From a virus: 64,000 bases of DNA. The stretch lies in the IMG/VR virus record IMGVR_UViG_3300010354_000075, positions 3,306-67,305 of that record; one strand, given 5' to 3'. Within the stretch, counting starts at the first letter, position 1; each line of letters begins with the position of its first letter. This document shows, piece by piece, positions 11,892-59,760 of this stretch. The position numbers were made by a program, and so were the translations under genes. Below the pieces are notes generated by a model. The model saw only the letters and a list, made by a program, of their open reading frames with translations, made no database searches and had not been told where the DNA came from.

Positions 11892-11905
11892 TAATGTTTT
11901 CCAAA

Positions 11906-34400: not shown

Positions 34401-37400
34401 AGCTATCTATCCATTTTTGTTCAATCTCATAAGGTAAAATAGTATTTGGATGTTCGCTAATAATTTTCCATTGAGAATGAGAATTATTTTCTTTATTTTC
34501 AACTGTCCAATATTGTACACTTAATACAACATCTTTGTCTTTTAGATAGCTATCTACATTAACAAGACCAAAACTGTCTGGCGATAACAATACCAAGCAT
34601 GGATATCCAAAACTTCTAGGATCTGCTATTAATCTAGAGATAGCTTCCGCAGCTAACATTCTGCCTTCCTTATTAGGAACTATTGTAGTATTTTTTACCC
34701 AATAGTAATAAGTGTTAACAAATGTTTTGCTTACAGTATCGTATTTTTTCTTAATACTATATACACTATCACCATACTTGGATTTTCCGCTTAAACCTTG
34801 AATTAATCCTTTTTCGGTATCGGCAATCTTATCTCGTTCTGACGGAAGTAGTTTGGATTCTACCCACTCATAGATATCAATACTGCCGGTTTCATATAAG
34901 GTATTCCAGTTTGTTGATCTGTAAACAATCTCTCCGCCTTGATTTTCTATAAATTTTGCTTTTGTTAAATCCCACCATAACATACCAGTATAGGTATTAG
35001 TCCATGCCATGCCATCGTCGACAGTTACTAGTTCGTTACCGACTGAATAAGTAGCCGGATCATAATAAGTTTTAAATTTAATTTCTTGATCAGCTATGCC
35101 TGGTATTTTTCCTTGAATAGGATCAATAACATCAAGATACTTAACTAATAAATTTTCTCGTCTATTATATAAAAACGCTTTTTTAATTTGATAGACATTA
35201 GGTCTAGCTCTTTCGTAGTGTACAACACTCCAGCTAAATTTTCCTGAAGGTTTTCTATAAGCATATACTATTCCAGCATCTGGAAAATCCTGATTTTCTT
35301 CTCTAGGAGCAGATACTAAAATATTATTTGATCCTACTGCTATGCTCTTTCCATATCCATCAGATGCTTCATTAATCGAACTAGTAGTTAATGACTCTCC
35401 AAATACATAGTTCGAATTGTATTTGTCGAATACATCTACTCTACCTGTTAAGAACTGTAAATCTACTATTCTCAGCGTAGAATTATCAAATTGTGTAGTC
35501 GAGTTATCGAACGTTGTTTCATTTTTGATATCACTATTGACACTATGTACAACTAAAGTATCAGCGTCATTCATAAATTCTACATAATGACCAAATTTAT
35601 GATTATTACCCGGATCAATACTAACTAGTGTTTGATATGGTGACCAAGATCCTGAATATGCTTCGAATATTTTTACAGATCCTTGTGCGTTATAGGTATC
35701 TGTATATAATGTAGAAGACACAGCGAGATGGCTTCCTGAATCACTTATAGAAACACTTTCGCCAAATCTTTGCTCTAAGTTTAGATTTAGATTCTGAGCT
35801 CCTAAAGAGTCTACAAGTACATAAGCATTGCCATTATATTCATAGGTAAAAATTTTACCTGTGTTATTAAATTGTGCTGTAGTTAATAATCTCCAATCAT
35901 TGGTGTTAAAGGTTCCTGCTACAGAACTATCAAAAGTTTTCTTGTAGCTGTAATAACCAGCAGGATCTACGCCGCCGCCATAATAAACTACATCATTAAC
36001 ATCATATTTTTCTGTTGATCTAAATTTTCCTCTATAATTATTGTAAGTATTTTGATCCGCATAAGGAGCACTAATTACAATTTTAGTTCCGTCGCCACTC
36101 ATGGCTATATCATACCCGAACAAGTCTCCAGGGTTAACTGATTCAACATTTTGATCTTTAACAGGCGATACTATAGCTAGTGTTACAATGCCGCCACCGA
36201 CATATTTGTATAAAGGATCTTCCAACCCTCCTAGGTATGGAGGAGATGGTAAAAATCTTGGGAACGGACAAACTATAACAGTTTGTGTAGTAGAAGAACT
36301 ATAAACTAACCAGTCTCCATTATATACATTAGGATTACAATTTCTAATTTCTATATATTGCCCTGCTGTAAATGGGGCACTTGGTCTGGTCGCATATGTA
36401 ATTGTTGCTCTTCTAAACTTTACAGTTCCTGTGGTAGCTGGAAAATTAGGTGTAATATTTGTGATGACTATCGGTGTAACATCTGCCACATTAGAAACTA
36501 CTTCCTGAGGAAAATATCCTAAAATGTTTGTTTCTTCTAAAATTTGCCAACCGCTAGCATTTGTTTCAAAAGTATTAGGATCTTGGAGAGTTATACATTC
36601 GTATAGTTCATAGTTATAAAAAACAACATCCCCTGGATAGTATTGTCTAGAAGGACTGAATATACCTGTGTATGATCTACGATAATCCATATGCCAATTA
36701 GACTGACTACTGTCCTCTTCTAATTCAGCATATCTAAACATATAGACTCTGCCCTGATTATCATTATATCCGGGGCTAGTTATAGACAATACATATTCAT
36801 TTCCGTTTTGAGCAAATACCATCTTAGAGCCAAATAATTCTCCTGCTGTTGGATTAGGGCTTACAAATGACTGAAATAAATTGTACGATCCGCCTGGAGT
36901 TCTAGCATAAAGATTTACATATCCCTGATTTAGATTAGAATTATTTGGTTTATATTCTTCGGTAGTAACAAGATATGCTGGCGCCCAGTCTTGAGAAAAT
37001 ATATCAATAGATGATAAATCGTTTGACACAGCACTACGTCTAGCACTAAAATGTGTATTCCTTACCTGTACAATATCTCCGAAGGCATATGAATTACTAT
37101 TATAAAAATCACCTTTCCAGTTCGATCTAATATTAGAAGCAGTAGGTGCTGCTATAGCCATCCACTTGCCGTCTGCGCTAAATGCTACTTCTGCTCCAAA
37201 GCCTAGATTGTCAGTACTAGCTAATTTTAAGTTAGGTGTTATCAGTTGTTGTTGTAACCAAACATCATACGTATCCGACACTGGGCCTTTTTCATAAATG
37301 TAAACTTCATTATTAGCAGTAGATACAGCTAGAATATTACCGTTCTTATTAATTGCTACTTTTGTTCCAAATTTTACTTCTAGTAATGGTTCTTTATTTT

Positions 37401-40400
37401 CTAATATAAATCTATTATAAATTTTTTCATTAGAATATACAGTATAAGGAATTGCGCCATTATAAGATAAATTTTTACTTCCTACATCTGCCCATAACAG
37501 TTCTTTATTTTTAATATAAGGAGGTAAAATTTCATTCGCATTATCAATATTATCTACTCTACTGGAAATAAACTTGTAAGTTAAAATTTCAGAACTATCA
37601 ACAAATGGTGGCTTCCAATCTTTAATAACTTTTTCGATGGTAATTTTTCTGGATTGAACAGAACTAACTATATGGAATCCTTTAATTTTTTCGGAATGTA
37701 TAATTCCGATAATATCTCCTTTTTCAATGTTAGGAAATATATCACATTGTAATGTAATAATTCCATCGCTATATTCTACATCCTCGATAGAAAATGTATT
37801 TTTTGTAAATCTATATACATTCCAGTCCCTATTTTCAAACGCTGTCCATACATAATCCCCTTCTTGAAAATCATCAATATCTAAATTAATAATTTCATTA
37901 AGAGTATCTACATTTACTTTAACATCCTCATATCTTACATAACCTGGAGATCTTAAAAAACGTTTTGTTCCTAAGGTTGGCCAAGGGGAATTCTTATATC
38001 CTAAAGGTTTTAGATAAACATCCCCAAGTGCGATTCTATAAATTAAATCTGTGTTGATATTTTCAACAGTGTTTACTAGTTGTATAGGCTGTGGGTTTAA
38101 TTTAAATTTAGATTCGTCTAATTTAAATTCAATTTCTTCGAACACAGCACTAGCACCATATTCTCCAACTCTTACAGCCCATTCTTCATTAAATGTAAGA
38201 CTTTCTTGATTATCGGCACTTAGAACGTCAAAAAGCTTGCTCAAAACATTTTGAGTGCCTTTTTCTATTATCATACCTTGATAGAACTTATATTGACTTA
38301 CATCGTCCTTTATAATATTTTCTAAGTACTGTCTATTTTGATAACCAATAAGATGCTGTGCTAATCTTTGTTGCTCGCTGTCAAAGTTATCGGTATCTAA
38401 ATCATAAAAATCTGTAAATTGTTCAGACCTATAATCCCAGTTAGGAATAAGTGTAGGTACAGGTTTTTCTCTTAGTAGTACCCACTCATCTGATTTAAAA
38501 TTTTCTCCGCCGACTACAAATTGTTTAGCACTGTAAAAATACTCTTTATGCTTTACAATATCTCCGAGATTATAATCAGTCCAAGGAGTAAAATCATTAA
38601 TAAACGCTTTGTCAAAAATAAATCCTGGGATATCAAATCCGCCATTCCAATCAGTTGTCTTATAACCAATTACTTTAACTCGTTCCTGCCTATATCCTGG
38701 TTCTTGATCATATATAACATCATTAAACAACGTTGTATTATCTAATAATAACACATGTTCTTTTTGTACAAGATAGAATGTTCCTCCATAGATACCATAT
38801 GCTGTATTTTCTGGAATTATTGAAAACTCATTTCCCGACCTGAATGTGCTTACAAATTCTGCTCCTAGTAATTGACCGTCTACTCTAAAAACTTTATATC
38901 CGTAAAACGGATTTCGTATATCATCTACTACAGCTAAATCATTTCTGATGATTAGTTTTACTGCTGCTGGGCTTAAAGATAGCGCAGACCCTTCGCCCCA
39001 ATTTTGTGTAGTCCAGAACAAAAATTCATTTACGCTAGTTTCCCAATTAGTTACAGCTTTAATTGTAGGATTATACTGGTCAAAAACAAATCCCTGTTCT
39101 TCTAAGTAAGCACCGTATCCTTGTAGAAAATCTACAACCTCCTGAATAGTTTTTAGTCTGGTTCCGTAAGATAAAAATAACTCTTGGTTCTTTACAAAAC
39201 TTTTTCTTAATATAGCTTCAGCACCACCTATCATTGGTAAGCCAGGTAATTTAGTAAACAATGTTTCATCAAAATTATCTCCAGATTGATGAGTGACATT
39301 TGTTCTGTAATATCTATTGCTATATAAAACTACTTTACCTGCTACATAAGTTTTATTTGTGTCCCAACTTGTAAAACTTTCTGATATTCCTCCTATTCTT
39401 ATTACTCTATCATTTTGTCTGAATGGATAGTAGGTAAAGAAGGGTTCGTCAAAATTATAACCTCTTAATTCATAACCGTCAGAAAACTTGCTAATCACAA
39501 CTCCACTATACACTAGTTTCTTAATTGGACTAGACACATTTAAGAATATATTGAAATTATCTTCTGGTACAAAAACTCCTCCTGAACTTGTAGGATTCTT
39601 ACTATCTAATAAAATTTTAAATTTATTCTTGCTAGTAAATCCTCCTAGTTTATGAGAAATTTTATTTGTTAAATGCTGTAAATCCTGTTTATATTCGTCA
39701 ATTTTAAAAGTTACATCCGATGTAGCAAAATCAATGATATAATTTACCAATCCTGATGTAAAGACACGAGTTGTATCATTTACTGTTGAAGGTAAAACTA
39801 TATCAGATAATCTTATTCTCAAACTAGTTGGACTGTAAACTAATTGTCCGGTGGCACTTCTAATCTGTCTATTTCTATCAAAACATACAGACAATGTTTG
39901 AGCAGGGTGTAATAAAAGAATAGTTTTAATTAAAGCAAAAGGATAATAGCTACTTCTGCGCCATGCTGTTTCAACAGGACCTTGATCTCCAAATGAATAG
40001 AATCCTTCCGATGTAGACGGTAACGGTCCGGTAACAAAATTTGATTCTAATGGGTTACGTAAATTTCCTAACTCGTCTGTAGGAGAAGTATTCCTTAAAA
40101 TAGGTCTAATAAATTTATCATGTACTTTGGGAGGTTTTCCAGGTTCTCTTATTATACCTTGACTCAGATCGTCCCATAGTAAAAAGTTATCAGATGTATA
40201 TGGAGCAGGACCATAAACTTCCTGCCACCACGTAGGTTCGATACTGAATCCCAAACACTGCCACGGAGTAATGTGTGGACTATCTGTATCAAATATCCAA
40301 TTATATATACCACGCCAAAACGCCTGACTATCTGAACCGTCAGGATAGTAGTTTCCTCGATAATTAAAGGTAAACGGTTCTAGTCTATCCCAGTAAGTTT

Positions 40401-43400
40401 GTTTAGTAAAATCTTCTTTAATTAAGCTTGTCCATTGGAAAAAACTAGGACTTAACACTCGGTCAAATTCTTCTTTAGAATACGCAGTTTTTCTATTGTA
40501 ACCTGGAATATAATTCCAAATATCAAATATTGCCGGATCGTATTTTTGTTTGATATTATTATAAATTCTTAATTCTAGTTCTAATAAGAGATCATCTCTA
40601 TAATCGCCGTAGCACAATGTTATGCTTCCGTCATGACCTTGAATAACTTCCTTAGGTTCTAAGTAGGTGTCATCTAAAAATTTTCTTGGTTTAAATTTAG
40701 GATATAACCCTAACTTTGTAGGTGTCGGTGGACAGAAACTGCCGTCAGTAGAATCGTATTCATATACTTCGATGATATCGTCATCATTAAGTTCGCCTAT
40801 AATATTAAAGAAAACATCGTCGTTACCAAAAACATAATCAACTCCTTCGATTAATTGAATACCATTTCTATAAACATAGACAGCTTGATTACTAAGTCTA
40901 TCTAAATTAAATGTTCTTGATATTGAAAATATTCTTTGAAATCTTCCATCCTCGACAAGATATTCTAATCTAGTATATCCGCTGTACCCGAACATATCTG
41001 AAAAATAATAAGAATGGGTACTAGGTTTATCTTTAAACATAGTTTCAAGAATTAAATCTACGTGTCTACGAGCATCCATGTCGACACCTAAATTTTCTGC
41101 TACAGTTAAAAATGTACGTTTAAATGTAGCATAATCTTCTTGTGCTTCGGTAATAGATTTTACAACGTTGATATCTAACTTAGCCAAATGATATAATGAC
41201 AAATTTAACGGGCAACTATGTTGAACTATTCTAGATCCAAATTCTGTTAAATTGCCTAGATCGCGTAGATTACCATTACCTGGGTAAGTACCTACAAAAT
41301 CAGATATGTTATCGACTACAGAACTAACATGATCAACAACTTCTCCTAATGTAAAAGATTCTAAATTTTTATTAAGAGGGTTGTTTTGAAGATTAATAGG
41401 TATTTCATAAAAACCATTATTGTTTTTAGATTGTTTAGCATAACATTTTAAAGTAACTATATCAGACAATGTAACATCATTATCTAACACAACTATAAAT
41501 CTTACTACACCTCTTTCTACTGTAAATTTTTCTCTATTAAGACGTTTACCATTAACGTACACTCTAACTTCTAAATCAGATAGATCATCTGTGTTATCAT
41601 ACACATCAACAGGAAAATTATTAACTAATCCTGATTCTTTGAAAATTCTTACTATTGGTTGAACATTTTTAATTTCTGATTTTTTCCACCCGTTAACATA
41701 ATTCCATGTGTCTAAACCAGTAATCTTTTTAAGAAATCCTATATCAGTTCTTTTACTATTAATCGAATTTCCATTTTTATAATTAAAAGACTCTTGTAAT
41801 AAATTAAAATTAAAAACTATATCGCCGACATTATTAATATTTTTGTAAGAAAGAGGAAATCCTAAAATTTTATCTTTGGATCCATTTCCCTGTTTGTAGC
41901 TAAAGATTTGATTACCATTAAAAGTAGACCCGTCATACGCAGTAACATCGCCATAACTATTGCCATCATGATCAAATACATCAAAGAAAATAGGCTGGTT
42001 AACTCTAGATTTAGATTGCGCCAATTTCCAATTCGATCCATCATACCAATACATAGAACCTTTGCTTGTATTACCGCCTCTTACTAATACTGTTTCATAA
42101 AGCAAAGGTGTAGTATCTGGTTCTTCTACTAAATTAATTTGTTTACGTTTGCCAAGAAAAACTTCAAATTTATGAGTATTAGCTCCCCTATTTAGGATGT
42201 CGACCTGCCTTGTTAATGCGCTATCAAAAAATAATTTAATTTGTGTAGCACTTACTACAAAAACATAGTATTGTTGTCTGTTGCTTAACCCACCGATATC
42301 ATTATTACCGTTGTTTAAATATGTAACTTGAACGCCGGTATTTAAAAAATGTTCCGAAGCAAATGTTATAACATCCGAATTAGGATTTACTGTAGCATCA
42401 GCTACGAATTCTATTTGTCTTTGAGGAACAATTATTTCAATAAAATTTACTTTAAAAATTTTTCCTTTAACTAGTATATCCGGATCGGCTGTAAATAATA
42501 CTCTCATATTAGGAGTAAGACTTACTCCATCGACATTGTATCCCGTACTACCTTCTATAATTGAAAAAACATCTGTAGTAAATGTATCAATCAAATCAAT
42601 ATCTTTTTTGGCCTGATGACCAAAATTATACAATTTAATATCAGCTTCATATTCTATAATTGGTCTTACAGCTCTTAATGACTGATCAACATCTGGAATT
42701 TTTCCGTTAAGTTCTGCTGAAACTTTAATAACATCTTCATGGAACCATCTATTATATCTACTCCATGGGTTTCTATCTTTAGATCCACGAGCCATTACAA
42801 TATAATCATTATCTCTAGGATAAGCACTGGCTACACTGAAAGGATCGTTATCGAATCCTGTATCATCAAATAATAATTCTGATTCTTGAGTATATGTACT
42901 AATAATTTCCAAAGCTGATTCTGGTATTAAAGTGATAGAAGTTCCCACACCGTCTACATACCAATTTCCATCTTTATATTCAGCCGGAGTAATATTACCC
43001 TCAAAATTAAGTTTCATTCCGTTAGAAAGTTTAACTCCCGAAGTTAAAGTATAATCTTTCTTTCCTAGAATATCTTTATCTACATCTAAAAATGTATTTT
43101 CTTCAATGTCTAATATTTGTATTACGCCACCGGCTGTAGGATCTTTTTCATTAACAAAATAAAGTAAATCTGGAGCATCTTTTCTTACTTTAAAAGTTAT
43201 CACTCCTTGCTCTACAGCAAATTTTGATACACCTTTTTTGTATCTGTCAGTATCTCCGCCGACTCTTGACAATTTAAAACTAAAAGGATTACCCGGACTA
43301 TTAATACTAAAGTTATAAGTCTGCCCTCTGAAAAGTCGTATAGTAGGATTTCTAGTCAGTCCGTTAGGCGAAAATACATAAGCGAAATTATCCTCTTCAT

Positions 43401-43926
43401 CTACTAGATCAACTTTGTATGTACTTTCAATTTCAAGTTGCTGTCCAAATACTTTTATAACGTCGGGACCGTATGCTAACCAATAATAATTTTGGAAATT
43501 AACGAACTTGTCCCAATTAATATGCGGATCCCAACTATAAAATTCTTGTTTGTTTAATCTTTCATGATTGGCTACATCACCGCCCAATACACTTATTTGA
43601 TTAATATAGTCGATATAATCTTTAAAAAATGTTACATTCTCAAACTTGTCCTGAATAACAGCAGCAGGTTCTAATTGATAATTTTTGCGAGATTCCTCTT
43701 TAGACTCTATATAAATGTCGTCGGACTTAGCAGATTTGGCATTTTGTTGGCCAATGTATCCATTAAGTTTTTTTACTTTACCAGGTTGCGTAAGTTGGTC
43801 TAAAGTAGCCTGTAAGAACTTTTTATTACTATCTGTTCTATAGGTTCTAGGAAGTAAATTAGCAGTTCTTCTTGGTTCGTTACCGCCAGTAGGTAACCCA
43901 AATTCGTCTTGATCGTTATTGGCCAT
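28402..43926 (-). CDS. Giant (5174 aa) multidomain baseplate wedge/adhesin, gp7-like by position
   Basis: Follows gp6; seven FG-GAP-like blades, YxxGDxV repeats, GxGY repeats, a YHYH-like domain and Ig-like DG repeats. Confidence 0.75.
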   Translation of the reverse strand: MANNDQDEFGLPTGGNEPRRTANLLPRTYRTDSNKKFLQATLDQLTQPGKVKKLNGYIGQQNAKSAKSDDIYIESKEESRKNYQLEPAAVIQDKFENVTFFKDYIDYINQISVLGGDVANHERLNKQEFYSWDPHINWDKFVNFQNYYWLAYGPDVIKVFGQQLEIESTYKVDLVDEEDNFAYVFSPNGLTRNPTIRLFRGQTYNFSINSPGNPFSFKLSRVGGDTDRYKKGVSKFAVEQGVITFKVRKDAPDLLYFVNEKDPTAGGVIQILDIEENTFLDVDKDILGKKDYTLTSGVKLSNGMKLNFEGNITPAEYKDGNWYVDGVGTSITLIPESALEIISTYTQESELLFDDTGFDNDPFSVASAYPRDNDYIVMARGSKDRNPWSRYNRWFHEDVIKVSAELNGKIPDVDQSLRAVRPIIEYEADIKLYNFGHQAKKDIDLIDTFTTDVFSIIEGSTGYNVDGVSLTPNMRVLFTADPDILVKGKIFKVNFIEIIVPQRQIEFVADATVNPNSDVITFASEHFLNTGVQVTYLNNGNNDIGGLSNRQQYYVFVVSATQIKLFFDSALTRQVDILNRGANTHKFEVFLGKRKQINLVEEPDTTPLLYETVLVRGGNTSKGSMYWYDGSNWKLAQSKSRVNQPIFFDVFDHDGNSYGDVTAYDGSTFNGNQIFSYKQGNGSKDKILGFPLSYKNINNVGDIVFNFNLLQESFNYKNGNSINSKRTDIGFLKKITGLDTWNYVNGWKKSEIKNVQPIVRIFKESGLVNNFPVDVYDNTDDLSDLEVRVYVNGKRLNREKFTVERGVVRFIVVLDNDVTLSDIVTLKCYAKQSKNNNGFYEIPINLQNNPLNKNLESFTLGEVVDHVSSVVDNISDFVGTYPGNGNLRDLGNLTEFGSRIVQHSCPLNLSLYHLAKLDINVVKSITEAQEDYATFKRTFLTVAENLGVDMDARRHVDLILETMFKDKPSTHSYYFSDMFGYSGYTRLEYLVEDGRFQRIFSISRTFNLDRLSNQAVYVYRNGIQLIEGVDYVFGNDDVFFNIIGELNDDDIIEVYEYDSTDGSFCPPTPTKLGLYPKFKPRKFLDDTYLEPKEVIQGHDGSITLCYGDYRDDLLLELELRIYNNIKQKYDPAIFDIWNYIPGYNRKTAYSKEEFDRVLSPSFFQWTSLIKEDFTKQTYWDRLEPFTFNYRGNYYPDGSDSQAFWRGIYNWIFDTDSPHITPWQCLGFSIEPTWWQEVYGPAPYTSDNFLLWDDLSQGIIREPGKPPKVHDKFIRPILRNTSPTDELGNLRNPLESNFVTGPLPSTSEGFYSFGDQGPVETAWRRSSYYPFALIKTILLLHPAQTLSVCFDRNRQIRSATGQLVYSPTSLRIRLSDIVLPSTVNDTTRVFTSGLVNYIIDFATSDVTFKIDEYKQDLQHLTNKISHKLGGFTSKNKFKILLDSKNPTSSGGVFVPEDNFNIFLNVSSPIKKLVYSGVVISKFSDGYELRGYNFDEPFFTYYPFRQNDRVIRIGGISESFTSWDTNKTYVAGKVVLYSNRYYRTNVTHQSGDNFDETLFTKLPGLPMIGGAEAILRKSFVKNQELFLSYGTRLKTIQEVVDFLQGYGAYLEEQGFVFDQYNPTIKAVTNWETSVNEFLFWTTQNWGEGSALSLSPAAVKLIIRNDLAVVDDIRNPFYGYKVFRVDGQLLGAEFVSTFRSGNEFSIIPENTAYGIYGGTFYLVQKEHVLLLDNTTLFNDVIYDQEPGYRQERVKVIGYKTTDWNGGFDIPGFIFDKAFINDFTPWTDYNLGDIVKHKEYFYSAKQFVVGGENFKSDEWVLLREKPVPTLIPNWDYRSEQFTDFYDLDTDNFDSEQQRLAQHLIGYQNRQYLENIIKDDVSQYKFYQGMIIEKGTQNVLSKLFDVLSADNQESLTFNEEWAVRVGEYGASAVFEEIEFKLDESKFKLNPQPIQLVNTVENINTDLIYRIALGDVYLKPLGYKNSPWPTLGTKRFLRSPGYVRYEDVKVNVDTLNEIINLDIDDFQEGDYVWTAFENRDWNVYRFTKNTFSIEDVEYSDGIITLQCDIFPNIEKGDIIGIIHSEKIKGFHIVSSVQSRKITIEKVIKDWKPPFVDSSEILTYKFISSRVDNIDNANEILPPYIKNKELLWADVGSKNLSYNGAIPYTVYSNEKIYNRFILENKEPLLEVKFGTKVAINKNGNILAVSTANNEVYIYEKGPVSDTYDVWLQQQLITPNLKLASTDNLGFGAEVAFSADGKWMAIAAPTASNIRSNWKGDFYNSNSYAFGDIVQVRNTHFSARRSAVSNDLSSIDIFSQDWAPAYLVTTEEYKPNNSNLNQGYVNLYARTPGGSYNLFQSFVSPNPTAGELFGSKMVFAQNGNEYVLSITSPGYNDNQGRVYMFRYAELEEDSSQSNWHMDYRRSYTGIFSPSRQYYPGDVVFYNYELYECITLQDPNTFETNASGWQILEETNILGYFPQEVVSNVADVTPIVITNITPNFPATTGTVKFRRATITYATRPSAPFTAGQYIEIRNCNPNVYNGDWLVYSSSTTQTVIVCPFPRFLPSPPYLGGLEDPLYKYVGGGIVTLAIVSPVKDQNVESVNPGDLFGYDIAMSGDGTKIVISAPYADQNTYNNYRGKFRSTEKYDVNDVVYYGGGVDPAGYYSYKKTFDSSVAGTFNTNDWRLLTTAQFNNTGKIFTYEYNGNAYVLVDSLGAQNLNLNLEQRFGESVSISDSGSHLAVSSTLYTDTYNAQGSVKIFEAYSGSWSPYQTLVSIDPGNNHKFGHYVEFMNDADTLVVHSVNSDIKNETTFDNSTTQFDNSTLRIVDLQFLTGRVDVFDKYNSNYVFGESLTTSSINEASDGYGKSIAVGSNNILVSAPREENQDFPDAGIVYAYRKPSGKFSWSVVHYERARPNVYQIKKAFLYNRRENLLVKYLDVIDPIQGKIPGIADQEIKFKTYYDPATYSVGNELVTVDDGMAWTNTYTGMLWWDLTKAKFIENQGGEIVYRSTNWNTLYETGSIDIYEWVESKLLPSERDKIADTEKGLIQGLSGKSKYGDSVYSIKKKYDTVSKTFVNTYYYWVKNTTIVPNKEGRMLAAEAISRLIADPRSFGYPCLVLLSPDSFGLVNVDSYLKDKDVVLSVQYWTVENKENNSHSQWKIISEHPNTILPYEIEQKWIDSLQGVDKNGRTVPDLKLPIKQRFGIENRPRQSMFINRIEALKQFIERVNSILKNNLIVDEFDLTPLTKLEEPPSAVSGQWDIAIDTYPEFRFVGTSQLEQIKLTPVIVDGKLTEVQIVQRGKGYINSPTSIITGKGRNAEIKINLNATGGVDTVDIVNPGFGYKADTFINVRPYSVLVLSDSESYDKWAIYHYNRANRDWTKQKAQSYNVTTYWSYIDWYDTGYDQFTKFNHVVANTNELASLESFIGQIIKVSNVGTGGWTLFLKINDIITTDFTQNFKVIGRQNGTIKFLDNLYNFKGKEQGFDALLYDAGQYDSVPSAELSIILDTIKNKILIDNLRADYLKLFFSSMRYALSEQPFLDWIMKTSFVKATHNAGELKQKVNYNSDNLQDFESYINEVKPFRTKVREYVSGYTRLDNAALSVTDFDLPPIINEDFKVHPLTVVLNENYALGSSAFQLLEYPWKHWYDNAAYSIQTIELFDGGKGYIDPPTVKIVDDYGLVTSTNELKSNFDGPNSVWLLQEGTLKITATGLPYHSHGTQEANNVAVDQSYNQVIPLRGGSYAAGPHAEIPEGIIGYWLNGVAIFNPSAGTATPEGYDSQTDYNYNAAYSTSEILELNFGHDRAGGLVTEDGQYSYRDSSFLDAWLSGIGNDLADVDKIDALEIPYLRNGLEHADGHSKILGFALDGYPIYGPNGYNVATDPNSGVDRMTSSYGLKNSSYRTGFLQDLTTYPMGMFIQDYEYSGDGTLDKHNGRYCITPDYPNGTYAYFVTTNSAGTPVYPYVIGPTYFGDSAPQDRNDASNGKGTPPKFYNLYNSNAVQATARAYITNGKVSRIVLRTEGSGYLTAPRVVFEGGLDSTVENYHAKAYAVLKNNVVRSNKTLIKFDRNSRNYFVTELTQVETFVGTGSRKQFALRFSPVLTIGNTLVKINDNEILRDNYSLSIKKSTTKGFTSYYGVLTLETAPAIGDQVQITYDKNFEHLNAADRINFYYNPQTGQLGKDLAQLMTGIDYGGVIVSGLGLSLGGGWDSQPWFSEGWDGYDVGFTDYIVSVSDSTYVFDLPYVPTAGEQINVYVNGVRIDDEYYDSYDGITVQPNGRTSAPEGRVMQTWTGDGLSKTIELPNLTSIVPLDINAGDKIIFRKSTSDGSINPDPKNFDTQLQGGNLSYTTATGFAPDDILVEGGGRFITPETSHAPEEIVPGHITDTLNIKVFRLPVSGSSRIISKNYICDGVLDQFDISQFPNGENGVFVNLDNQILKLGTDYTLDWQSRKIILTVAPANKKILNVTCFGVASDNLLDSNFFVADGSTSDYITNAPWPQLYTDDVFEQSIDRLGSVVLVNNQPVIYELFRTDESYETTGFVGIRFPDPPEQDAIINYIMTADANTSLSLINSTPIAADGSTTSFSLGTVPTDNSKPYENYILVIANGNLLRPAESIYWRMSDNEYVYEIADFKTLPFSLDPSTIKVYIDGELLSSLDYVINNTNLTIEIRDFVYVDQGILTLTRFEDTDYTISGNNIIFDTAPSGNVDVITFFNHSVQNIVRTREYFSISSTLVPGSASYYQYHSIKGGSLRLFRLAQSDDYIWVAKNRELLVHSVDYYLDDDHRTIKFKDAFEDSDVIDVILFGDKNVTNSFGFMQFKDMLNRTHYKRISKNKSTRLVKDLKQRDLTIEVENGSMLTEPNRALNLPGIVEINGERIEYLTKNGNVLGQLRRATLGTGSPAIHRVTSVVLDIGPTETIPYNDEFIVESSIGDGSTKNIRLSYAPTKVDVDWYTDTIPSTYGRSDEIEVFVGGYRLKKNPYSLFDETNQYPDSPEGDNQYEAEFSVDGTEQVRLTNEVAENVKITVIKKVGRVWEDSAPPAKVFRNIQAGSGGAVFDVIKNGPTYTLTLRRGGINYSVGDVLIILGSRLGGTTPENDIVITVTDISDDSSASILGYTYTGIGASSGFTTVSLSDSDNPVANFLKNTEAVWPQYFADKYQYVLLTDTGESITVDGEEPLELD

Positions 43927-53466: not shown

Positions 53467-53497
53467 TATTTAGTTGACAAAATAAAGTGCGTAGTTT
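53467..53497 (-). promoter_or_regulatory. Bipartite late promoter AAACTACGCAC-N14-TAAATA for the baseplate operon
   Basis: TATTTA 53467-53472 and GTGCGTAGTTT 53487-53497. Confidence 0.7.
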
Positions 53498-53502
53498 ACA
53501 AT
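53474..53502 (+). promoter_or_regulatory. Sigma70-type promoter of the gp55-gp47-gp46 operon
   Basis: TTGACA (53474-53479), 17-nt spacer, TACAAT (53497-53502); GAGGTG Shine-Dalgarno before ATG 53520. Confidence 0.85.
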
Positions 53503-53519
53503 TTAACAACGAGGTGCAA

Positions 53520-54341
53520 ATGAAAGTTAATTACTTAAACAACAAAGACTTACTAGAAGAAATACACAAATCAAAAAACACTTATTGCTCATTTACCAAA
53601 CCAGAATATCATCGCTATGATGTTATTTTGCCTAATATTGACAAAATTAATATAAGAACTATAGCCGATGCTAAACGTGCTCATGCCAAACGACTCAGTG
53701 TACAAGCTTATGAAGCACGTAAGCAAGCTGGAGAAAAAGTCAAATTAGCTGAATGCGAAGTGGACTATAAAAAGATTCCTAAATCGGATTTAATTTTCCG
53801 AATAATGACTTTTGATCATATACCATTAAACACTACACGAAAAAAGAATCCAAAAACTACAGCAGATGGACGCGACAAAGTTAACTTTCCTCCATTCCAA
53901 CATTATAAATTTAATGAAGATGATGTATTAGTTTGTGTAGGCAAAAGTCATTGGCGAGGGTCTGTAGACAAAGGAAAATTTAGTAAAGATCACGGTCAAA
54001 TTACTAACACTCTAGCTAAAATGTATATTAAACTTTGTGAAAGATATGCTACTAGAGGTAATGTTAGAGGTTATACCTATAACGACGAAATGCGTGGACA
54101 GGCTATTTTACAATTAACACAAATTGGATTACAATTCGATGAATCAAAATCAGACAATCCTTTTGCGTACTTTACTGCTGCTGTAACTAATAGTTTTGTA
54201 CGCATTATCAATATTGAAAAACGCAATCAAGTAATAAGAGACGACTTGCTAGAAATGAATGGCATGAATCCAAGTTATAGTAGAACTGGGCAAGGAGAAT
54301 ATGTGGCGGCACTTAGACGAAACGAAGGGTATGACGAATGA
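53520..54341 (+). CDS. gp55: Late-transcription sigma factor gp55-like (273 aa)
   Basis: NYLNNKDLL; NVRGYTYNDEM..A....FDESKSDNPFAYFT....NSF.RII..EK. Confidence 0.88.
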   Translation: MKVNYLNNKDLLEEIHKSKNTYCSFTKPEYHRYDVILPNIDKINIRTIADAKRAHAKRLSVQAYEARKQAGEKVKLAECEVDYKKIPKSDLIFRIMTFDHIPLNTTRKKNPKTTADGRDKVNFPPFQHYKFNEDDVLVCVGKSHWRGSVDKGKFSKDHGQITNTLAKMYIKLCERYATRGNVRGYTYNDEMRGQAILQLTQIGLQFDESKSDNPFAYFTAAVTNSFVRIINIEKRNQVIRDDLLEMNGMNPSYSRTGQGEYVAALRRNEGYDE

Positions 54342-54496
54342 TAACATATGTAACAGTGAAGGTAGGCGAAGGACACTATTTGAAACTTGTATTCACTAGA
54401 ATGACTGAAGATGACAACTGGATTTGTCAAATGGAGAATACCCTAATGTCAGAAGTACAGCAAATTATAGGAAAGGACATTTATGGGCCTTTTTAA
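54338..54496 (+). CDS. Small hypothetical protein (52 aa), missing from the ORF track
   Basis: ATGA overlap with the gp55 stop; MITYVTVKVGEGHYLKLVFTRMTEDDNWICQMENTLMSEVQQIIGKDIYGPF; overlaps the gp47 start. Confidence 0.6.
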   Translation: MITYVTVKVGEGHYLKLVFTRMTEDDNWICQMENTLMSEVQQIIGKDIYGPF

Positions 54497-55493
54497 AAAA
54501 GTAGCCTGCTTAACTGACATTCACTTCGGTTTAAAATCTAATAGTCAAACACACAATCAAGACTGTGAAGACTTTGTTGACTGGTATATTGCTAAGGCAA
54601 AGGAGGAAGGATGTGATACTGGAATTTTTCTCGGTGATTGGCATCATAATCGTAATAGTCTTAATATTACTACTATGGATTTCTCTCTCAGAGCTTTGGA
54701 GAAACTTGGTAGTAGCTTTGATCAGTTTTTCTTTTTTCCTGGCAATCATGATCTATATTATAAAGATAAACGAGATATACACTCAGTGGAGTTTGGAAAA
54801 TATATTCCAGGAGTCACAGTCGTACATCATCCCACGACCATAGACGACGTAACATTATGTCCTTGGTTAATTGGAGATGAATGGAAAGCTATTTCAAAAC
54901 AAAAAGGTCAATATATATTTGGGCATTTTGAACTGCCTAGCTTTTATATGAATGCTATGGTTCAAATGCCTGATCATGGAGAGATACAACTTAATCATTT
55001 TGCCAATTACGAGCTAGGATTCAGCGGTCACTTTCACAAAAGACAACAACGCGGTAATATGGTATACATTGGTAATTGTTTCCCGCACAACTATTCAGAC
55101 AATTGGGATAACGATCGAGGAATGATGATTTTAGAATGGGGTAAAAAACCAGAATATCACACTTGGCCCGGACAACCTACTTACAGAACTACTAAACTTA
55201 GCGAGTTGATTGATCGCGCTAATGATATTATACTACCTAAAACACATCTTCGTGTGAGCTTAGATATAGATATTAGCTACGAAGAAGCAAATTTTATTAA
55301 AGAAAAATTTATGGGCGATTATCCTATTAGAGAACTAACACTTGTTCCAGAAAAAAAGGAAGTAGAGATAATCAGCAATATTGAAATACAAGAATTTGAA
55401 AGTGTAGACCAAATTGTAACGAATCAGCTGGTCAATATAGATAGCGATACCTACGATAAAAAAGTTCTACTGTCAATTTATAACAATTTATGA
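54483..55493 (+). CDS. gp47: Recombination endonuclease subunit gp47 (Mre11/SbcD)
   Basis: TDIHFG, GDWHH, GNHD, GHFE, SGHFH phosphoesterase motifs. Confidence 0.93.
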   Translation: MGLFKKVACLTDIHFGLKSNSQTHNQDCEDFVDWYIAKAKEEGCDTGIFLGDWHHNRNSLNITTMDFSLRALEKLGSSFDQFFFFPGNHDLYYKDKRDIHSVEFGKYIPGVTVVHHPTTIDDVTLCPWLIGDEWKAISKQKGQYIFGHFELPSFYMNAMVQMPDHGEIQLNHFANYELGFSGHFHKRQQRGNMVYIGNCFPHNYSDNWDNDRGMMILEWGKKPEYHTWPGQPTYRTTKLSELIDRANDIILPKTHLRVSLDIDISYEEANFIKEKFMGDYPIRELTLVPEKKEVEIISNIEIQEFESVDQIVTNQLVNIDSDTYDKKVLLSIYNNL

Positions 55494-57268
55494 TAAGATT
55501 AAAAACACTAACAGTTAAAAATTTTATGAGTGTGGGTAACCAGACTCAAGCTGTAGATTTTACTAGAGAACATTTAACACTTGTACTAGGCGAAAACTTA
55601 GATATGGGTGGCGACGACAATGGCAGTCGCAACGGTACTGGTAAAACTACTATTGTAAATGCCCTTAGTTATGGATTATTTGGACAAGCTCTGACAAATA
55701 TTAAAAAAGATAATCTAATCAACAAAATTAATAATAAAAATATGTTGGTTACATTAGCGTTTGAAAAAGATGGGCAGGATTATCGTATCGAACGAGGTCG
55801 TAAACCCAACATATTAAAGTTCTATGTTAATGATATAGAGCAGGAAAACAACGAAACCGATGATAGTCAAGGCGATGTTAGAGAAACACAAAAGGATCTA
55901 GCAGATATACTTGGTATGAGTCACGATATGTTCAAACACATAGTGGCTCTTAACACGTATACTGAGCCATTTCTCAGTATGCGAGCGAATGAGCAACGTG
56001 AGATTATTGAACAACTGCTAGGTATAACTTTATTAAGTGAAAAAGCCGAGACTCTTAAAGAACTGATACGCATATCTAAGGATCAGATCCAACAAGAATC
56101 TGCTAATATCGAAGCAGCAAAGAAGTCTAACGAGAAAATACAACAAAGTATCGATGGTTTAGAAATTAAAAAAAGTGCTTGGTATAATCAACAAGAACAA
56201 GATTGTCTCAAACTAGCCGAAAAGATCATAGAACTACAAAGTGTTGATATAGAAAAAGAACTAGAGCAACATGCTAAACTAAAAACCTATGACGAACTAA
56301 GCGCAAAGATTAAAGCTCTACACAAACAAAAGGCTACACTTGAAACCAGTGTAATGCAGGCCGACAAAACAGTAAACAAATATAAAAAAGAATTAGAAAA
56401 GCTAGCAGATAACAAATGTCCTGCTTGTGAACAAGGCTTACATACAGATAAACATGAAGAAATGATTACTGTGGCTAAGAAAAATCTAGATGATTCCTAT
56501 ATATTTTTACAAGGAGTCAGCGATAGCTATGCTACTGTGATACAAGAACTAGAAGACATCGGTGATATTAATGGCAGACCTACTACTTTCTACGATAGTC
56601 TGGAAGAAGCATTAAGACATCAAAACAATTTAGCTAGTCTAGAAGACGCCTTAGGTAAACGACAACAAGAAATAGATCCTTACACTGAGCAAATTGAAGA
56701 ACTTAAAAATACAGCACTTCAAGAAATTAGTTGGGACACTGTAAATGAATTATCTGCTGTTAAGGATCATCAGGAATTCTTATTAAAACTATTAACAAAT
56801 AAAGATAGCTTTATTAGAAAGAAAATTATTGATCAAAATTTAAGCTATTTAAATAGCAGACTAACTTACTATCTCGATAAAATGGGCTTGCCACATCAAG
56901 TTACATTCTTAAACGACTTAAATGTAGAAATTACACAGCTGGGTCAAGACTTAGATTTTGATAATTTAAGTCGAGGCGAGCGTAATCGATTAATACTTGG
57001 GTTAAGTTGGAGTTTTAGAGATGTATGGGAAAGCTTGTACCAAAATATCAATCTATTATTTGTAGATGAGCTTATAGATAACGGGTTAGATGCTAGCGGT
57101 GTGGAGAATGCTCTTAGTGTTTTAAAGAAAATGGCACGAGAACGTAGTAAAAATATCTATTTGATTAGCCATAAAGATGAACTTATCGGTCGTGTAAACA
57201 ACGTCCTTAAGGTAATTAAGGAAAATGGGTTCACTAGTTATAGTACAGACTTAGATATCACTGATTAA
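55490..57268 (+). CDS. gp46: Recombination ATPase subunit gp46 (Rad50/SbcC)
   Basis: KNFMS, Walker A NGTGKT, CPAC zinc hook, LSRGE signature, LFVDE Walker B, ISH. Confidence 0.95.
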   Translation: MIRLKTLTVKNFMSVGNQTQAVDFTREHLTLVLGENLDMGGDDNGSRNGTGKTTIVNALSYGLFGQALTNIKKDNLINKINNKNMLVTLAFEKDGQDYRIERGRKPNILKFYVNDIEQENNETDDSQGDVRETQKDLADILGMSHDMFKHIVALNTYTEPFLSMRANEQREIIEQLLGITLLSEKAETLKELIRISKDQIQQESANIEAAKKSNEKIQQSIDGLEIKKSAWYNQQEQDCLKLAEKIIELQSVDIEKELEQHAKLKTYDELSAKIKALHKQKATLETSVMQADKTVNKYKKELEKLADNKCPACEQGLHTDKHEEMITVAKKNLDDSYIFLQGVSDSYATVIQELEDIGDINGRPTTFYDSLEEALRHQNNLASLEDALGKRQQEIDPYTEQIEELKNTALQEISWDTVNELSAVKDHQEFLLKLLTNKDSFIRKKIIDQNLSYLNSRLTYYLDKMGLPHQVTFLNDLNVEITQLGQDLDFDNLSRGERNRLILGLSWSFRDVWESLYQNINLLFVDELIDNGLDASGVENALSVLKKMARERSKNIYLISHKDELIGRVNNVLKVIKENGFTSYSTDLDITD

Positions 57269-57558
57269 TGGACACGCACGAACAACTAGTACACTTGTTT
57301 AGACAATATTTTGAAGCTAATCAAGAATGGGAAAGAAAACAAACACACACATCTGGTATAAAATGTAGAAACCTATTGGCAGAAATGCGAATATTGGCAC
57401 GTAAACGTAGGGCAGAAATAATGAAAGTAAGGCACGAAAAACCTAGTCAATCAAGTCCAGGCTACTTTGAATCAAATCGACGTAAGGCAGAATTAAAAAA
57501 GACTAAACAAGTTGATGTCGTGGTACCACCAGAATCAACTGATAACAGAACTTCCTGA
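57268..57558 (+). CDS. Small basic helical protein, Hc1 (histone H1-like) family-like
   Basis: HEQLVHLF..Y..E..SGIKCRNLLAEM..LARKRRAEI resembles the Hc1 pattern AGxRARKALxExxKLxKxxR. Confidence 0.5.
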   Translation: MDTHEQLVHLFRQYFEANQEWERKQTHTSGIKCRNLLAEMRILARKRRAEIMKVRHEKPSQSSPGYFESNRRKAELKKTKQVDVVVPPESTDNRTS

Positions 57559-57943
57559 AGATTGTATTGGATTTGTATATTGTATAACCAATATTACGAC
57601 CGGACGAATGTATATAGGCAAAAAACTGGCAAAATTTAGTAAAACCACATATAAAGTAGTAAAATTAAAAAACGGCACAAAGAAAAAGAAACGAATTAAG
57701 TCAAAAATAGACTCAGACTGGCAAACATACTACGGCTCCAACGACGAACTCAACAGAGATGTAACACAATTAGGCACAGACAAATTTCACAGAGAGATAC
57801 TTTATTACTGCAAAAGTAAGGCAGAGTGTAGTTACATCGAGGCAAAAGAACAATTCACAAGACGAGTACTGGAATCTAATGAATACTACAATGGTCAGAT
57901 CAGTGTTCGTGTCCATGGCTCACACATCAAAGGCAAATTATGA
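57515..57943 (+). CDS. Compact GIY-YIG endonuclease
   Basis: GFVYCITNITTGRMYIGKK, YYGS, F.REIL, catalytic-type E (YIEAKEQ), YYN; Lys-rich insertion; no C-terminal DNA-binding domain. Confidence 0.85.
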   Translation: MSWYHQNQLITELPEDCIGFVYCITNITTGRMYIGKKLAKFSKTTYKVVKLKNGTKKKKRIKSKIDSDWQTYYGSNDELNRDVTQLGTDKFHREILYYCKSKAECSYIEAKEQFTRRVLESNEYYNGQISVRVHGSHIKGKL

Positions 57944-58125
57944 AAATCACAGCTACAAATAAAAACGAATACGCATTAACTAAAATGCCCTGGGGCAAAT
58001 ATAAAGGCAGATTTATGAAGGAAATACCAGATGATTATATCATCTGGGCAGTAAAAAACTGGAAAGACGAAGCTACAGCACACATGTTTGTAGTGGAAAT
58101 GGCCAGAAGAAACATACAAATTTAA
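57940..58125 (+). CDS. DUF3820/ExoX C-terminal-like small protein
   Basis: MPWGKYKG....EIPDDYIIW matches the MPFGKYKG....xPxxYLxW signature. Confidence 0.75.
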   Translation: MKITATNKNEYALTKMPWGKYKGRFMKEIPDDYIIWAVKNWKDEATAHMFVVEMARRNIQI

Positions 58126-58135
58126 CAGTAATAGC

Positions 58136-58571
58136 TAGCGCAGGCTTATATCGTGCGCCTATGACAAGGGGTTTAACTACGCCTGGACAGAAGTCTCATC
58201 GCTGTAATGAGCACTCAGCAACTACCCTGAAAGAGGATGATGATCAGATATGCCTTCCCATACAACTGATTTTGCTGTTTAAGATTTCTATCAAAGGCTA
58301 AAAGAAGGGAGAAAACCCCTACGTTAACAAAGATGATAGCGTATTTTTGTTAACCGCCGTCGTAATAAAGACGTGGCTCGAGGTACCGGACGACCGCCTC
58401 TGTAATGCCATAACGCTGTGTGACATTGTGCAACTCGGATAATGTTATTTTTTAGCCCGGAAACGGGCTAAGTGTGACTGAACAATCTGGATAATATCTA
58501 AGTGCTTCGCACTGATTATAACTAAAAAAATGCTCGAGCATAAGCGAAGAGCAGATGAACGCAGTTCATCT
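58136..58571 (+). ncRNA. Large structured non-coding element (~440 nt), family unassigned
   Basis: No ORF in the supplied track, GC-richer than its flanks, about ten stems including TTAGCCCG-GAAA-CGGGCTAA; G-U pairs and a GNRA loop favour a plus-strand RNA; two possible pseudoknots. Confidence 0.75.
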
Positions 58572-58573
58572 CT

Positions 58574-58581
58574 AATAAATA
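58574..58581 (+). promoter_or_regulatory. Late promoter AATAAATA, 6 nt before ATG 58588
   Basis: T4 late consensus-like. Confidence 0.6.
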
Positions 58582-58587
58582 CATATT

Positions 58588-59760
58588 ATGAAAGTTCTTG
58601 ATATTATTCTAGAAAAAACACCTAGCTCTCCTACTAGTCCTAGTACTCCTTCTAGTCCTACACCTAAAGCACCTTTTAGAAAAAGACCTAAAAAACCTCC
58701 AGTAGTACCAGCTTCTCCTCCGAGTACAACACCGAAGCCAGGTTCTGGTGTTCCTAAACGTGCTAGTTCTGAAATGAAACTACTAGACTGGTTTACTAAG
58801 AGAGCCAAAGCTAGTAAAACTAGGATGGATCGAGCAGAGAAAGTTTATAATGGAAGATTCGCTACTAGATTAAAATGGCTTTTTAGATTAGTAGGTCTCA
58901 CTACAGCAGTATACGAATTATATGCTACATTAGATGAATTAGAAGAGTGGTATACTACAGGAAAACCTTTACCTAAAAGCGATGGTACTAGTGCTCCTAT
59001 GACCAAAGCAGGATACGAGCAGCTTAGAGAATTAGCATTTGGAACATTTCAGATACAAGTGTTGATTCCTATAGTTACACCGTGGATATTAAGATTTGTT
59101 AAAGGTGTTTTATTAGTTAATTGGATTAAACGAATTGGAGCATTTGCTAGTGCTCCGGTTACAGCAGGTGTCAGTGTTGCTGCTATGCTGGCTACTGAAG
59201 CAGGTGTAGCTGCTTTTCAAGCATGGTTAGGCAGTAGTGCCGGACGTGACTGGATTATTAACAGTATCTTTATGGAACCAATTAGACTATTTGGTAAATT
59301 TGGAGACACTGCTGCTAATGCTCTAAGTAAAGCATTTACTGGCAAGACCAGTTATGAAAAAGCAGACGAGAAGAGAGATAAAATTGTTGGACCTTCAGGG
59401 CAAGGAGGCCAAGAATCTGATAGAGCACTTCCTCCACCGGCTTCTGATTACAGAGATTCTTCTATTAGATATACCAGAGGAAAAGATGTGTATGTAGGCG
59501 GAGTTCCTGTTACCGATGCTGATGGATATTTAGATCCAAGAGCACTAGATAACATAGGTGTTATATCAGCAAGAAACCAGGCACAAAAAAGAGGACAAAA
59601 AGATCCGCTCTCAGGAATTCCGCAACGACCAGGAAAGCCACCAATAGAATTGTATGAGCCTGACAAGGAAGTTGTTCCTGCTGGCGGAGATCGCAGAGGA
59701 TCTACTAAAGATACTCAAGCAGCTTGGGAAAAGAAAAATCAAAAGCCAACGGCTGCTTAA
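58588..59760 (+). CDS. Hypothetical late protein, possibly an internal virion/ejection protein
   Basis: Late promoter; N-terminal MKVLDIILE; Pro/Ser/Lys-rich linker; hydrophobic helices. Confidence 0.55.
   Translation: MKVLDIILEKTPSSPTSPSTPSSPTPKAPFRKRPKKPPVVPASPPSTTPKPGSGVPKRASSEMKLLDWFTKRAKASKTRMDRAEKVYNGRFATRLKWLFRLVGLTTAVYELYATLDELEEWYTTGKPLPKSDGTSAPMTKAGYEQLRELAFGTFQIQVLIPIVTPWILRFVKGVLLVNWIKRIGAFASAPVTAGVSVAAMLATEAGVAAFQAWLGSSAGRDWIINSIFMEPIRLFGKFGDTAANALSKAFTGKTSYEKADEKRDKIVGPSGQGGQESDRALPPPASDYRDSSIRYTRGKDVYVGGVPVTDADGYLDPRALDNIGVISARNQAQKRGQKDPLSGIPQRPGKPPIELYEPDKEVVPAGGDRRGSTKDTQAAWEKKNQKPTAA

Follow-up and report, generated by a model that had tools for sequence, protein, structure and literature searches.

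Here we describe a conserved structured RNA of about 447 nucleotides (nt), built of three domains, that is encoded on the plus strand at positions 58125-58571 of a 64,000-nt stretch of viral DNA (positions 3,306 to 67,305 of IMG/VR record IMGVR_UViG_3300010354_000075; this whole stretch is hereafter called the window). Its 5′ domain is a bona fide Polynucleobacter-1 RNA (Rfam family RF01718), and that 141-nt motif, dating from 2010, makes up no more than the first third of a conserved unit about 450 nt long, which alters what should be synthesised, probed or imaged for this family. The helices of the unit and at least three pseudoknots (PK0, PK2 and PK3) are maintained by compensatory changes, and the genome that carries it is that of a giant phage from fresh water, uncultured and equipped with T4-type genes for replication and baseplate. 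An RNA had already been proposed at 58136-58500 in a reading of the letters of the window alone (the sequence-only reading), which listed stems and two loop pairings, called the RNA unassigned and possibly new, and placed it at the scale of a ribozyme.

The Polynucleobacter-1 motif is the first third of a longer RNA

The RNA occupies the longest interval of the window that is free of open reading frames (ORFs) of at least 90 amino acids (aa) (58125-58588; the runner-up is 11891-12130), and in this sense its description as the only long non-coding stretch was correct. The interval is bounded by the stop of the ORF at 57940-58125 and the start of the ORF at 58588-59760. The guanine plus cytosine content of the unit is 43.4%, against 33.8% for the 64-kb window, and its minimum free energy has a z value of -3.38 on the plus strand (0 of 100 shuffles were as good) and a weaker one of -1.97 on the minus strand. 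When the window was searched with cmscan against Rfam 15, RF01718 was the only family found above threshold in the 64 kb. It covers 58133-58280 on the plus strand with 89 bits (E 1.3e-17; gathering score 37), and the match is complete, taking in model positions 1-141 of 141; a search of the whole record gave the same result. The second hairpin of the model is poorly formed in the window, where non-standard pairs were flagged. The label 'unassigned' must therefore be withdrawn for the 5′ third, which is a full-length member of a known family, and the suggested novelty shrinks to the remaining two thirds or so (58281-58571), which match no Rfam family above threshold. As the sequence-only reading had supposed, the RNA is neither a tRNA nor a tmRNA (ARAGORN found none in the window) and neither RNase P nor an intron (no match at E up to 10 over 57900-58700); GOLLD, ROOL, OLE, HEARO and raiA likewise gave no Rfam match at E up to 10 over the same interval.

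A first exact-pattern scan of IMG/VR with the P1 region returned six contigs, every one of which is an RF01718 match. When they were aligned with the window (alignment A1), conservation was seen to extend over about 460 nt, to about window position 58570; the extent first proposed thus lies inside the conserved unit but stops short of its end at 58571. The near-invariant block GGTACCGGAnnACCGCC of the middle domain, used as a scan pattern, recovered at least 120 contigs. With an nhmmer profile the RNA was found in 117 loci (first three scans, among the matches listed), 91 of them full length and the remaining 26 partial, mostly truncated by the end of the locus. Reduction of the 91 at 97% left 87 non-redundant homologues, the set used for alignment A2, in which the unit measured from PK0 to P14 has a median length of 446 nt (range 416-569). 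In the converse scan, made with a pattern of the 5′ domain alone, 66 of 68 new loci carried the RNA and 2 were chance matches (among the matches listed); 57 of the 66 were full length, 8 were cut by the locus end and 1 was odd (L238). Therefore the 5′ domain is not found alone: wherever a locus has room, the same middle and 3′ domains come after it. A looser 5′ pattern gave 53 loci, chiefly chance, six of them with the RNA.

In all, the RNA is present in at least 189 loci, made up of IMG/VR phage contigs and seven contigs of metagenome-assembled genomes (MAGs). The latter came from a stricter pattern run against species-representative prokaryote genomes, where 10 contigs matched and 7 were true; all seven are MAG contigs with assorted labels, two of them Polynucleobacter, and no copy was found in the isolate genomes among these species representatives. 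We therefore conclude that the RNA is phage-borne. A blastn search with 58100-58600 found no match in 50,697 GenBank phage records. The whole records of all five cultured phages searched (Melnitz-3, S-SRM01, phiN3, ACP17 and P-HM1), as well as that of Pseudomonas jumbo phage PA5oct, are without RF01718; nhmmer on the corresponding PA5oct locus was also negative.

Compared with the Rfam model of Polynucleobacter-1, the conserved unit begins 8 nt earlier, with PK0, and beyond the end of the model every homologue that has room carries about 290 nt more, which make up the middle and 3′ domains. Table 1 of Weinberg et al. 2010 (Genome Biol 11:R31, PMC2864571) lists Polynucleobacter-1 as a probable RNA of Burkholderiales from fresh water or estuary; the DNA runs that contain the present stretch are likewise recorded as aquatic, freshwater, lake-water or aquaculture metagenomes. 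The tentative 5′ untranslated, cis-regulatory position of Polynucleobacter-1, a proposed and not a defining property, is not seen here. No account of the long form was found in the literature searched, including the papers naming Polynucleobacter-1 or cow-rumen-2, a search outside which the supplements of Weinberg 2010 and Fremin 2023 lay; in Fremin et al. 2023 (PMC10690425), candidates are of 151 nt or less only and those overlapping Rfam families were discarded. A coding or translational-bypass reading of the region was also considered and rejected, as the upstream ORF stops at 58125 and the alignment contains insertions and deletions whose lengths are not divisible by three.

Base pairing is maintained by compensatory changes

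The structure was written from window coordinates as 96 pairs in 22 helices (Table 1) and counted on the 87-row MAFFT alignment A2, to which all percentages below refer. Over the 96 pairs, 90.6% of cells were paired against 76.5% after shuffling (0 of 500 shuffles reached the observed value, a count and not a probability), and when the 3′ partners were slid out of register the figure dropped to 36-44%. Changes on both sides were found in 74 of the 96 pairs, and the covariation score was 0.392, compared with 0.157 for the shuffled alignments. Covariation among homologues, which the sequence-only reading had named as a check on itself, is thus present, and each stem that it listed was located by string look-up at the coordinates given there. 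We found helices P1, P3, P4, P4b, P6, P8, P10 and P14 to be well supported. The helices belonging to RF01718 (P1, P3 and the junction P4/P4a/P4b) are 89-99.5% paired with compensatory changes: P1 (GCGCA/TGCGC) reaches 99.5%, with all five pairs changed on both sides, P4 (CAGCAA/TTGCTG) 95.4%, its inner helices P4a (CCT/AGG) and P4b (GATCAG/CTGATT) 88.7% and 96.7%, and in P3 (CTCAT/ATGAG) four pairs are 91.7% paired and one 87.4%.

Of the two loop pairings proposed from the letters alone, AGCGT/ACGCT (PK2) is fully borne out (Table 1). The other, GCCTT/AAGGC (PK1), is weakly favoured: the longest Watson-Crick run is 3.55 against 2.91 in shuffled loops, about 23 rows having letters in the aligned columns. 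Two further pseudoknots, PK0 and PK3, were absent from the earlier list and are both supported by the homologues. PK0 was found through mutual information; it is 84.2% paired, all four of its pairs have changed on both sides, and it lies 5′ of the start of the Rfam model, touching the stop codon of the upstream ORF. PK3 competes with the stem CGTC/GACG (58358-61/58370-73), which is 90.5% paired but shows no changes on both sides (0/4), PK3 being the better supported. The stem TGACATTGT/ATAATGTTA holds as ACATT/AATGT (83%) and not beyond, and P5 (AGGG/CCCT) is weaker, about 64% paired in the MAFFT alignment; we suspect that misalignment accounts for the lower scores of P5, P12 and P13. We conclude that this is a large, multi-domain, pseudoknotted non-coding RNA with strong covariation, as the sequence-only reading held for its size and fold, and that the word 'ribozyme' in it was owed to size alone.

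Frequent G-U pairs, such as the GU found at columns 221/252 in 85 of 87 rows, fix the strand of the RNA as plus. RNAalifold, run on the gappy MAFFT alignment, recovered 54 pairs and missed the pseudoknots. A non-Watson-Crick coupling was also noted in the 5′ domain between window positions 58225 and 58238, where 54 rows have T with C and 33 have C with T, as though the P4a helix were shifted in register by one position.

Table 1. Domains, helices and pseudoknots of the RNA, with the neighbouring genes (window coordinates)
Feature	Position	Strand	Remarks
Whole conserved RNA unit	58125..58571	+	447 nt here; nhmmer profile and length distribution
5′ domain	58133..58280	+	RF01718 cmscan match; helices covary
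PK0	58125-28 with 58202-05	+	5′ strand ACAG with P3 loop CTGT; found through mutual information
P1	58138-42/58154-58	+	5′ domain helix
P3	58195-99/58207-11	+	5′ domain helix
Three-way junction	P4 58216-21/58272-77; P4a 58226-28/58234-36; P4b 58242-47/58266-71	+	5′ domain
PK1 (candidate)	58252-56 with 58294-98	+	P4b loop GCCTT with AAGGC; weakly favoured
Middle domain	58306..58420	+	near-invariant core GGTACCGGAnnACCGCC
P5	58306-09/58317-20	+	middle domain
P6	58323-33/58344-54	+	GTTAACAAAGA/TTTTTGTTAAC; 91.6% paired, 11/11 pairs covary
PK2	58338-42 with 58413-17	+	AGCGT with ACGCT; 99.1% paired, 5/5 pairs covary
PK3	58360-63 with 58390-93	+	second strand is P8b loop; 99.4% paired, 3/4 pairs covary
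P8	58374-77/58407-10	+	TGGC/GCCA; 98.6% paired, 4/4 pairs covary
P8a	58380-83/58397-400	+	GAGG/CCTC; 96.3% paired
P8b	58387-89/58394-96	+	CGG/CCG; invariant
3′ domain unit 1	58418..58471	+	GTGTGAC, module M1 A-CTC-GGATAAT (word 58437-43) in P9, then P10
P9	58423-27/58441-45	+	hairpin holding M1
P10	58452-59/58464-71	+	TTAGCCCG/CGGGCTAA; 91.7% paired
3′ domain unit 2	58472..58513	+	GTGTGAC, module M2 A-TCT-GGATAAT (word 58489-95), then P12
P12	58501-04/58510-13	+	loop CTTCG; both-side changes; hairpin absent in some homologues
P13	58532-35/58549-52	+	inner GC/GC and tandem G-A positions; within terminal hairpins 58532..58571
P14	58553-60/58564-71	+	terminal hairpin; 96.8% paired, 8/8 pairs covary
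Late sigma factor gene	53487-54341		upstream neighbour
gp47-like and gp46-like recombination nuclease genes	54483-57268		followed by a 96-aa ORF
GIY-YIG nuclease gene, 143 aa	57512..57943	+	Pfam SegE_GIY-YIG, E 1.2e-33; PHROG 447
61-aa ORF	57940..58125	+	QSregVF_b / DUF3820-like; Pfam E 4.7e-08
390-aa ORF	58588-59760		no known family; directly 3′ of the RNA, then baseplate hub gene (minus strand) and T4-type portal gene

The 3′ domain carries the same variable word twice

The 3′ domain consists of tandem units, each with GTGTGAC, a short linker, a module of the form A-YYY-RGAURAN and a hairpin; in single-sequence folds of 18 homologues, the M1-type hairpin could be seen by eye in several rows. 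Among the terminal hairpins, P13a is 99.4% paired. The last seven nucleotides of the module, GGATAAT in the window, vary between homologues at four positions, and at these the word is the same in M1 and M2 in 87 of 87 sequences, among which nine variants occur. In front of the word the two modules never agree: the three bases there are CUC in one and UCU in the other, a difference that speaks against simple gene conversion. A tree from which the columns concerned had been left out requires at least 21, 5, 8 and 9 changes at the four variable positions and at least 34 for the whole word, and on its supported branches all seven independent pairs change alike (p = 0.016). The words vary by identity and not by complementarity, which points to a specific partner, and the pattern suggests that both word sites may read a single partner that differs between phages. 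All variants can also be read as an NNA codon (GGA, AGA, GCA or GAA) followed by UAA or UGA. A palindrome in M2 was considered as a self-pairing dimerisation site and rejected by eye, since the GCAT variants (7 of 87) would break it.

The middle domain weakly resembles cow-rumen-2

In the permissive scan of 57900-58700 the further matches were all at chance level, the best of them being a full-length match to cow-rumen-2 (RF02947), with 16.6 bits at 58322-58419. Of four other records bearing the RNA, three matched RF02947 over its full length on the middle domain with 15.3-20.5 bits (the position of the match was checked for L009 only) and the fourth gave a partial match of 8.8 bits; all of these scores are far below the gathering score of 66 bits. 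A model of the middle domain (R1, 59 sequences) in turn matches 25 cow-rumen-2-like phage loci with 15-20 bits, again below significance, a comparison that is partly circular as the loci were picked by a pattern sharing 18 bases with the model. Both RNAs have a TAGC-loop hairpin, GCCGCC and the string GG-GTAC-n-GGAyrACC-n-CC followed by GTAA, and both adjoin a T4_baseplate (PF12322) gene. The cow-rumen-2-like loci differ in their flanks and gene order, and are without the Polynucleobacter-1 domain and the twin modules. Possible homology of the middle domain to cow-rumen-2, with scores below threshold, is thus a lead and not a result; the link suggests a core RNA module that may recur in giant phages from unrelated habitats.

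The cow-rumen-2-like RNAs were also looked at in their own right. In 58 viral loci (within L268-L376; for example L268:12091-12189 and L277:4289-4331), conservation reaches about 150 nt upstream of the 106-nt model and about 70 nt past its downstream end. Two to three copies occur in single contigs of 230-424 kb, and the RNAs lie about 200 nt upstream of the T4_baseplate gene with a gene for a RegA-type translational regulator nearby.

Genomic setting and transcription signals

The GIY-YIG nuclease gene upstream of the RNA in the window is a regular companion. Of the 165 loci with room, 160 have a homologue, usually of 144 aa, at most 1.2 kb upstream of the RNA and on its strand, and the stop codon of this gene typically lies no more than 20 nt from the Rfam start; therefore PK0 overlaps the last codons. 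Taking any plus-strand ORF, 98 of 100 loci have one that ends between -200 and +40 relative to the Rfam start, mostly within 20 nt. Genes interposed between nuclease and RNA are tolerated, as in the window, L076 and L083. The 61-aa ORF that intervenes in the window is peculiar to this phage, relatives being without it (alignment A1), and in the aquatic sequencing run X1 a DNA contig links 57937 with 58129 through 12 other letters. At two loci (L122:8819-9385 and L201:3963-4484) a PDDEXK_15 endonuclease stands in place of the GIY-YIG gene, the call resting on Pfam for the L122 protein only, to which the L201 protein is 55% identical by blastp; here one small nuclease has been replaced at the same place by another of different fold. 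L092 has an unknown 175-aa ORF upstream of the RNA, L219 has no nuclease there, and in L156 the RNA occurs in a wholly different neighbourhood from which the nuclease is absent. The GIY-YIG family itself has homologues in 330 phage records, and in all five cultured phages that were checked no long non-coding stretch adjoins the nuclease gene. Many GenBank phage records, and PHROG 447, tag this family 'NAD synthetase', which looks like a propagated mis-annotation.

On the downstream side a baseplate hub gene follows on the minus strand in 83 of 117 loci (among the matches listed). Of 95 loci, 42 have a convergent ORF as the next one 3′ of the RNA and 52 have one on the same strand, the families varying; therefore the RNA is not the leader of a fixed downstream gene. 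Between the RNA and the next same-strand ORF the hexamer TAAATA, which we take to resemble the T4 late promoter, is present in 36 of 52 loci. The window itself has the T4-late-promoter-like sequence TAATAAATAC at 58572-58587, just 5′ of the ATG at 58588. No sigma-70-like promoter was predicted in 57400-58800, and the T-tract after P14 is weak, with at least four T in eight bases in 16 of 87 homologues. In the RNA libraries of two studies, some contigs run from the end of a relative's nuclease gene into P1, a weak hint of co-transcription that falls short of proof; the RNA-library contigs (X18-X20) are short pieces of relatives from which neither expression nor transcript ends nor strand can be read, and gaps in their coverage carry no meaning.

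Discussion

On balance we lean towards the view that this is a structural RNA that acts in trans and is stable, having been matured from the 3′-terminal part of an early operon, and we hold the part of that statement that says what the RNA is much more firmly than the part that says how it works. The RNA, without a promoter of its own, would be made as the last part of an early or middle transcript on which gp55, gp47, gp46 and the small nuclease come before it, and its compact fold and terminal hairpins would then leave a stable, stand-alone RNA. It would act in trans, as a structural or binding RNA and not as the leader of the next gene, and the two tandem modules could serve as equivalent contact sites for one partner that varies between phages or hosts.

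Several points weigh against this view or loosen the counts beneath it. Alignment A2 was made with MAFFT and is not structure-aware, and its rows are related, for which reason the shuffle counts are not to be read as probabilities; the loci were gathered by patterns taken from conserved blocks, and the invariance of those blocks is partly by construction. No intrinsic terminator was predicted on the plus strand in 57400-58800, and the 3′-terminal hairpin does not have the form of a canonical rho-independent terminator. The RNA evidence consists of contigs only, from libraries in which DNA may be present. The expected partner of the word was also not found where it was sought. Inside the RNA the best other mutual information is at most 0.47, between pairs that are not complementary, and in the flanks there is no enrichment: per locus the own word occurs 0.93 times and its reverse complement 0.75 times, compared with 0.90 and 0.62 for the words of other loci. 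Nor does the word covary with the adjacent GIY-YIG protein above background, the top protein columns being the same C-terminal ones that top the control RNA columns.

The unit is like GOLLD, ROOL, OLE, raiA and HEARO in being several hundred nucleotides long with many helices and pseudoknots and in having come to light through comparative genomics, and some of those are phage-borne as well. GOLLD and ROOL are larger than about 450 nt. Few natural RNAs this large and complex are known beyond ribosomal RNA, RNase P, introns and some 'ornate' RNAs, and each has been informative; GOLLD, ROOL and OLE are reported to form RNA-only homo-oligomers (PMC12286853). A bolder proposal, which we think doubtful, is that the ~450-nt RNAs of giant T4-type phages, with Polynucleobacter-1 as their 5′ domain, form a so far unrecognised class within a superfamily sharing the cow-rumen-2 core, in which the word would be a programmable nucleic-acid reader. 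If that were true, the partner could be, for example, a host or phage RNA, and the word would change often and always in both copies.

Some of what has been described would also suit a cis-acting 3′ element of the upstream operon mRNA, serving as an exonuclease barrier or as an insulator or terminator ahead of the late genes: the unit touches the upstream stop codon at almost every locus, no promoter belonging to it was found, it sits at the border between replication and recombination genes and often convergent baseplate genes, and it ends in two covarying hairpins. We nevertheless regard this as unlikely. About 450 nt with at least three pseudoknots, a near-invariant core and twin words exceed the needs of a stabiliser, the last hairpin is without a T-tract in most homologues, and the form of the RNA is kept in L156 despite its different gene neighbourhood. 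A cis-regulatory leader or riboswitch of the downstream gene is the tentative class of Polynucleobacter-1, marked cis-regulatory 'y' and switch '?' in the Weinberg et al. 2010 table (PMC2864571), and the same-strand orientation of the next ORF in 52 of 95 loci would agree with it. The convergent ORFs at 42 of these loci and the differing families elsewhere, the late-promoter-like TAAATA that intervenes in 36 of 52, and the 300 nt or so of further conserved RNA that separate the 141-nt motif from any downstream gene make such a role highly improbable, and the long form thus argues against the cis-regulatory label first given to Polynucleobacter-1. A self-cleaving, self-processing or intron-like ribozyme could be suspected from the size of the RNA, its several pseudoknots and its near-invariant core (GGTACCGGAnnACCGCC and positions next to it), all of which are typical features of catalytic RNAs; as no ribozyme or intron family matched at E up to 10, and no interrupted host gene is apparent between flanking ORFs that look complete, we judge this very improbable.

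The near-constant presence of a nuclease gene directly upstream on the same strand, with a PDDEXK_15 protein taking its place in L122 and L201, raises the question of whether the RNA could be the binding or targeting partner of a nuclease that is little more than a catalytic domain, by analogy with TnpB and IscB. As with the RNAs at the 3′ ends of those genes, the structured RNA starts at or overlaps the 3′ end of a same-strand nuclease ORF, and the Pfam domain (123 positions) spans residues 4-130 of the 143, leaving little room for a DNA-binding domain. Unlike TnpB and IscB, however, the nuclease here is GIY-YIG or PDDEXK, of about 144-188 aa, and not RuvC-type, and neither a variable guide segment nor transposon ends were noticed at the RNA. 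Homologous nucleases moreover occur in 330 phage records, and without the RNA in five of the five cultured phages checked, whose whole records have no RF01718; other genes intervene in the window, L076 and L083, L156 has the RNA and no nuclease, and the word does not follow the protein. Such a partnership therefore seems to us quite improbable. It might finally be supposed that the twin words are DNA sites, iteron- or operator-like repeats for a phage DNA-binding protein that happen to overlap an RNA gene. Repeats that are identical within a genome and different between genomes are what would be expected of sites co-evolving with a protein, and the spacing of the words in the window, 52 nt, is about five helical turns. 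This we find scarcely credible, given that elsewhere in the region the compensatory changes are of the RNA type, G-U pairs on a single strand included, that the at least 34 word changes would need equally many changes of protein specificity, and that no candidate protein was identified.

Other features of the phage

The source record is 67 kb long, with a CheckV completeness of 19%. The gp46 protein of the window is closest to that of phage PA5oct (49.6% identity), in which the order of sigma factor, gp47, gp46 and, further on, the baseplate hub is the same as in the window and the RNA is absent. Between gp46 and the baseplate hub PA5oct has an unannotated stretch of 664 nt (L263:7367-8031; NC_071039.1, 76516-77180), roughly where the RNA would sit, with no similarity to it. 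Elsewhere in the window, a single ORF of 5174 aa on the minus strand (28402-43926) has CBM_5_12, FG-GAP and YHYH matches and probably encodes a giant fibre or adhesin-like virion protein.

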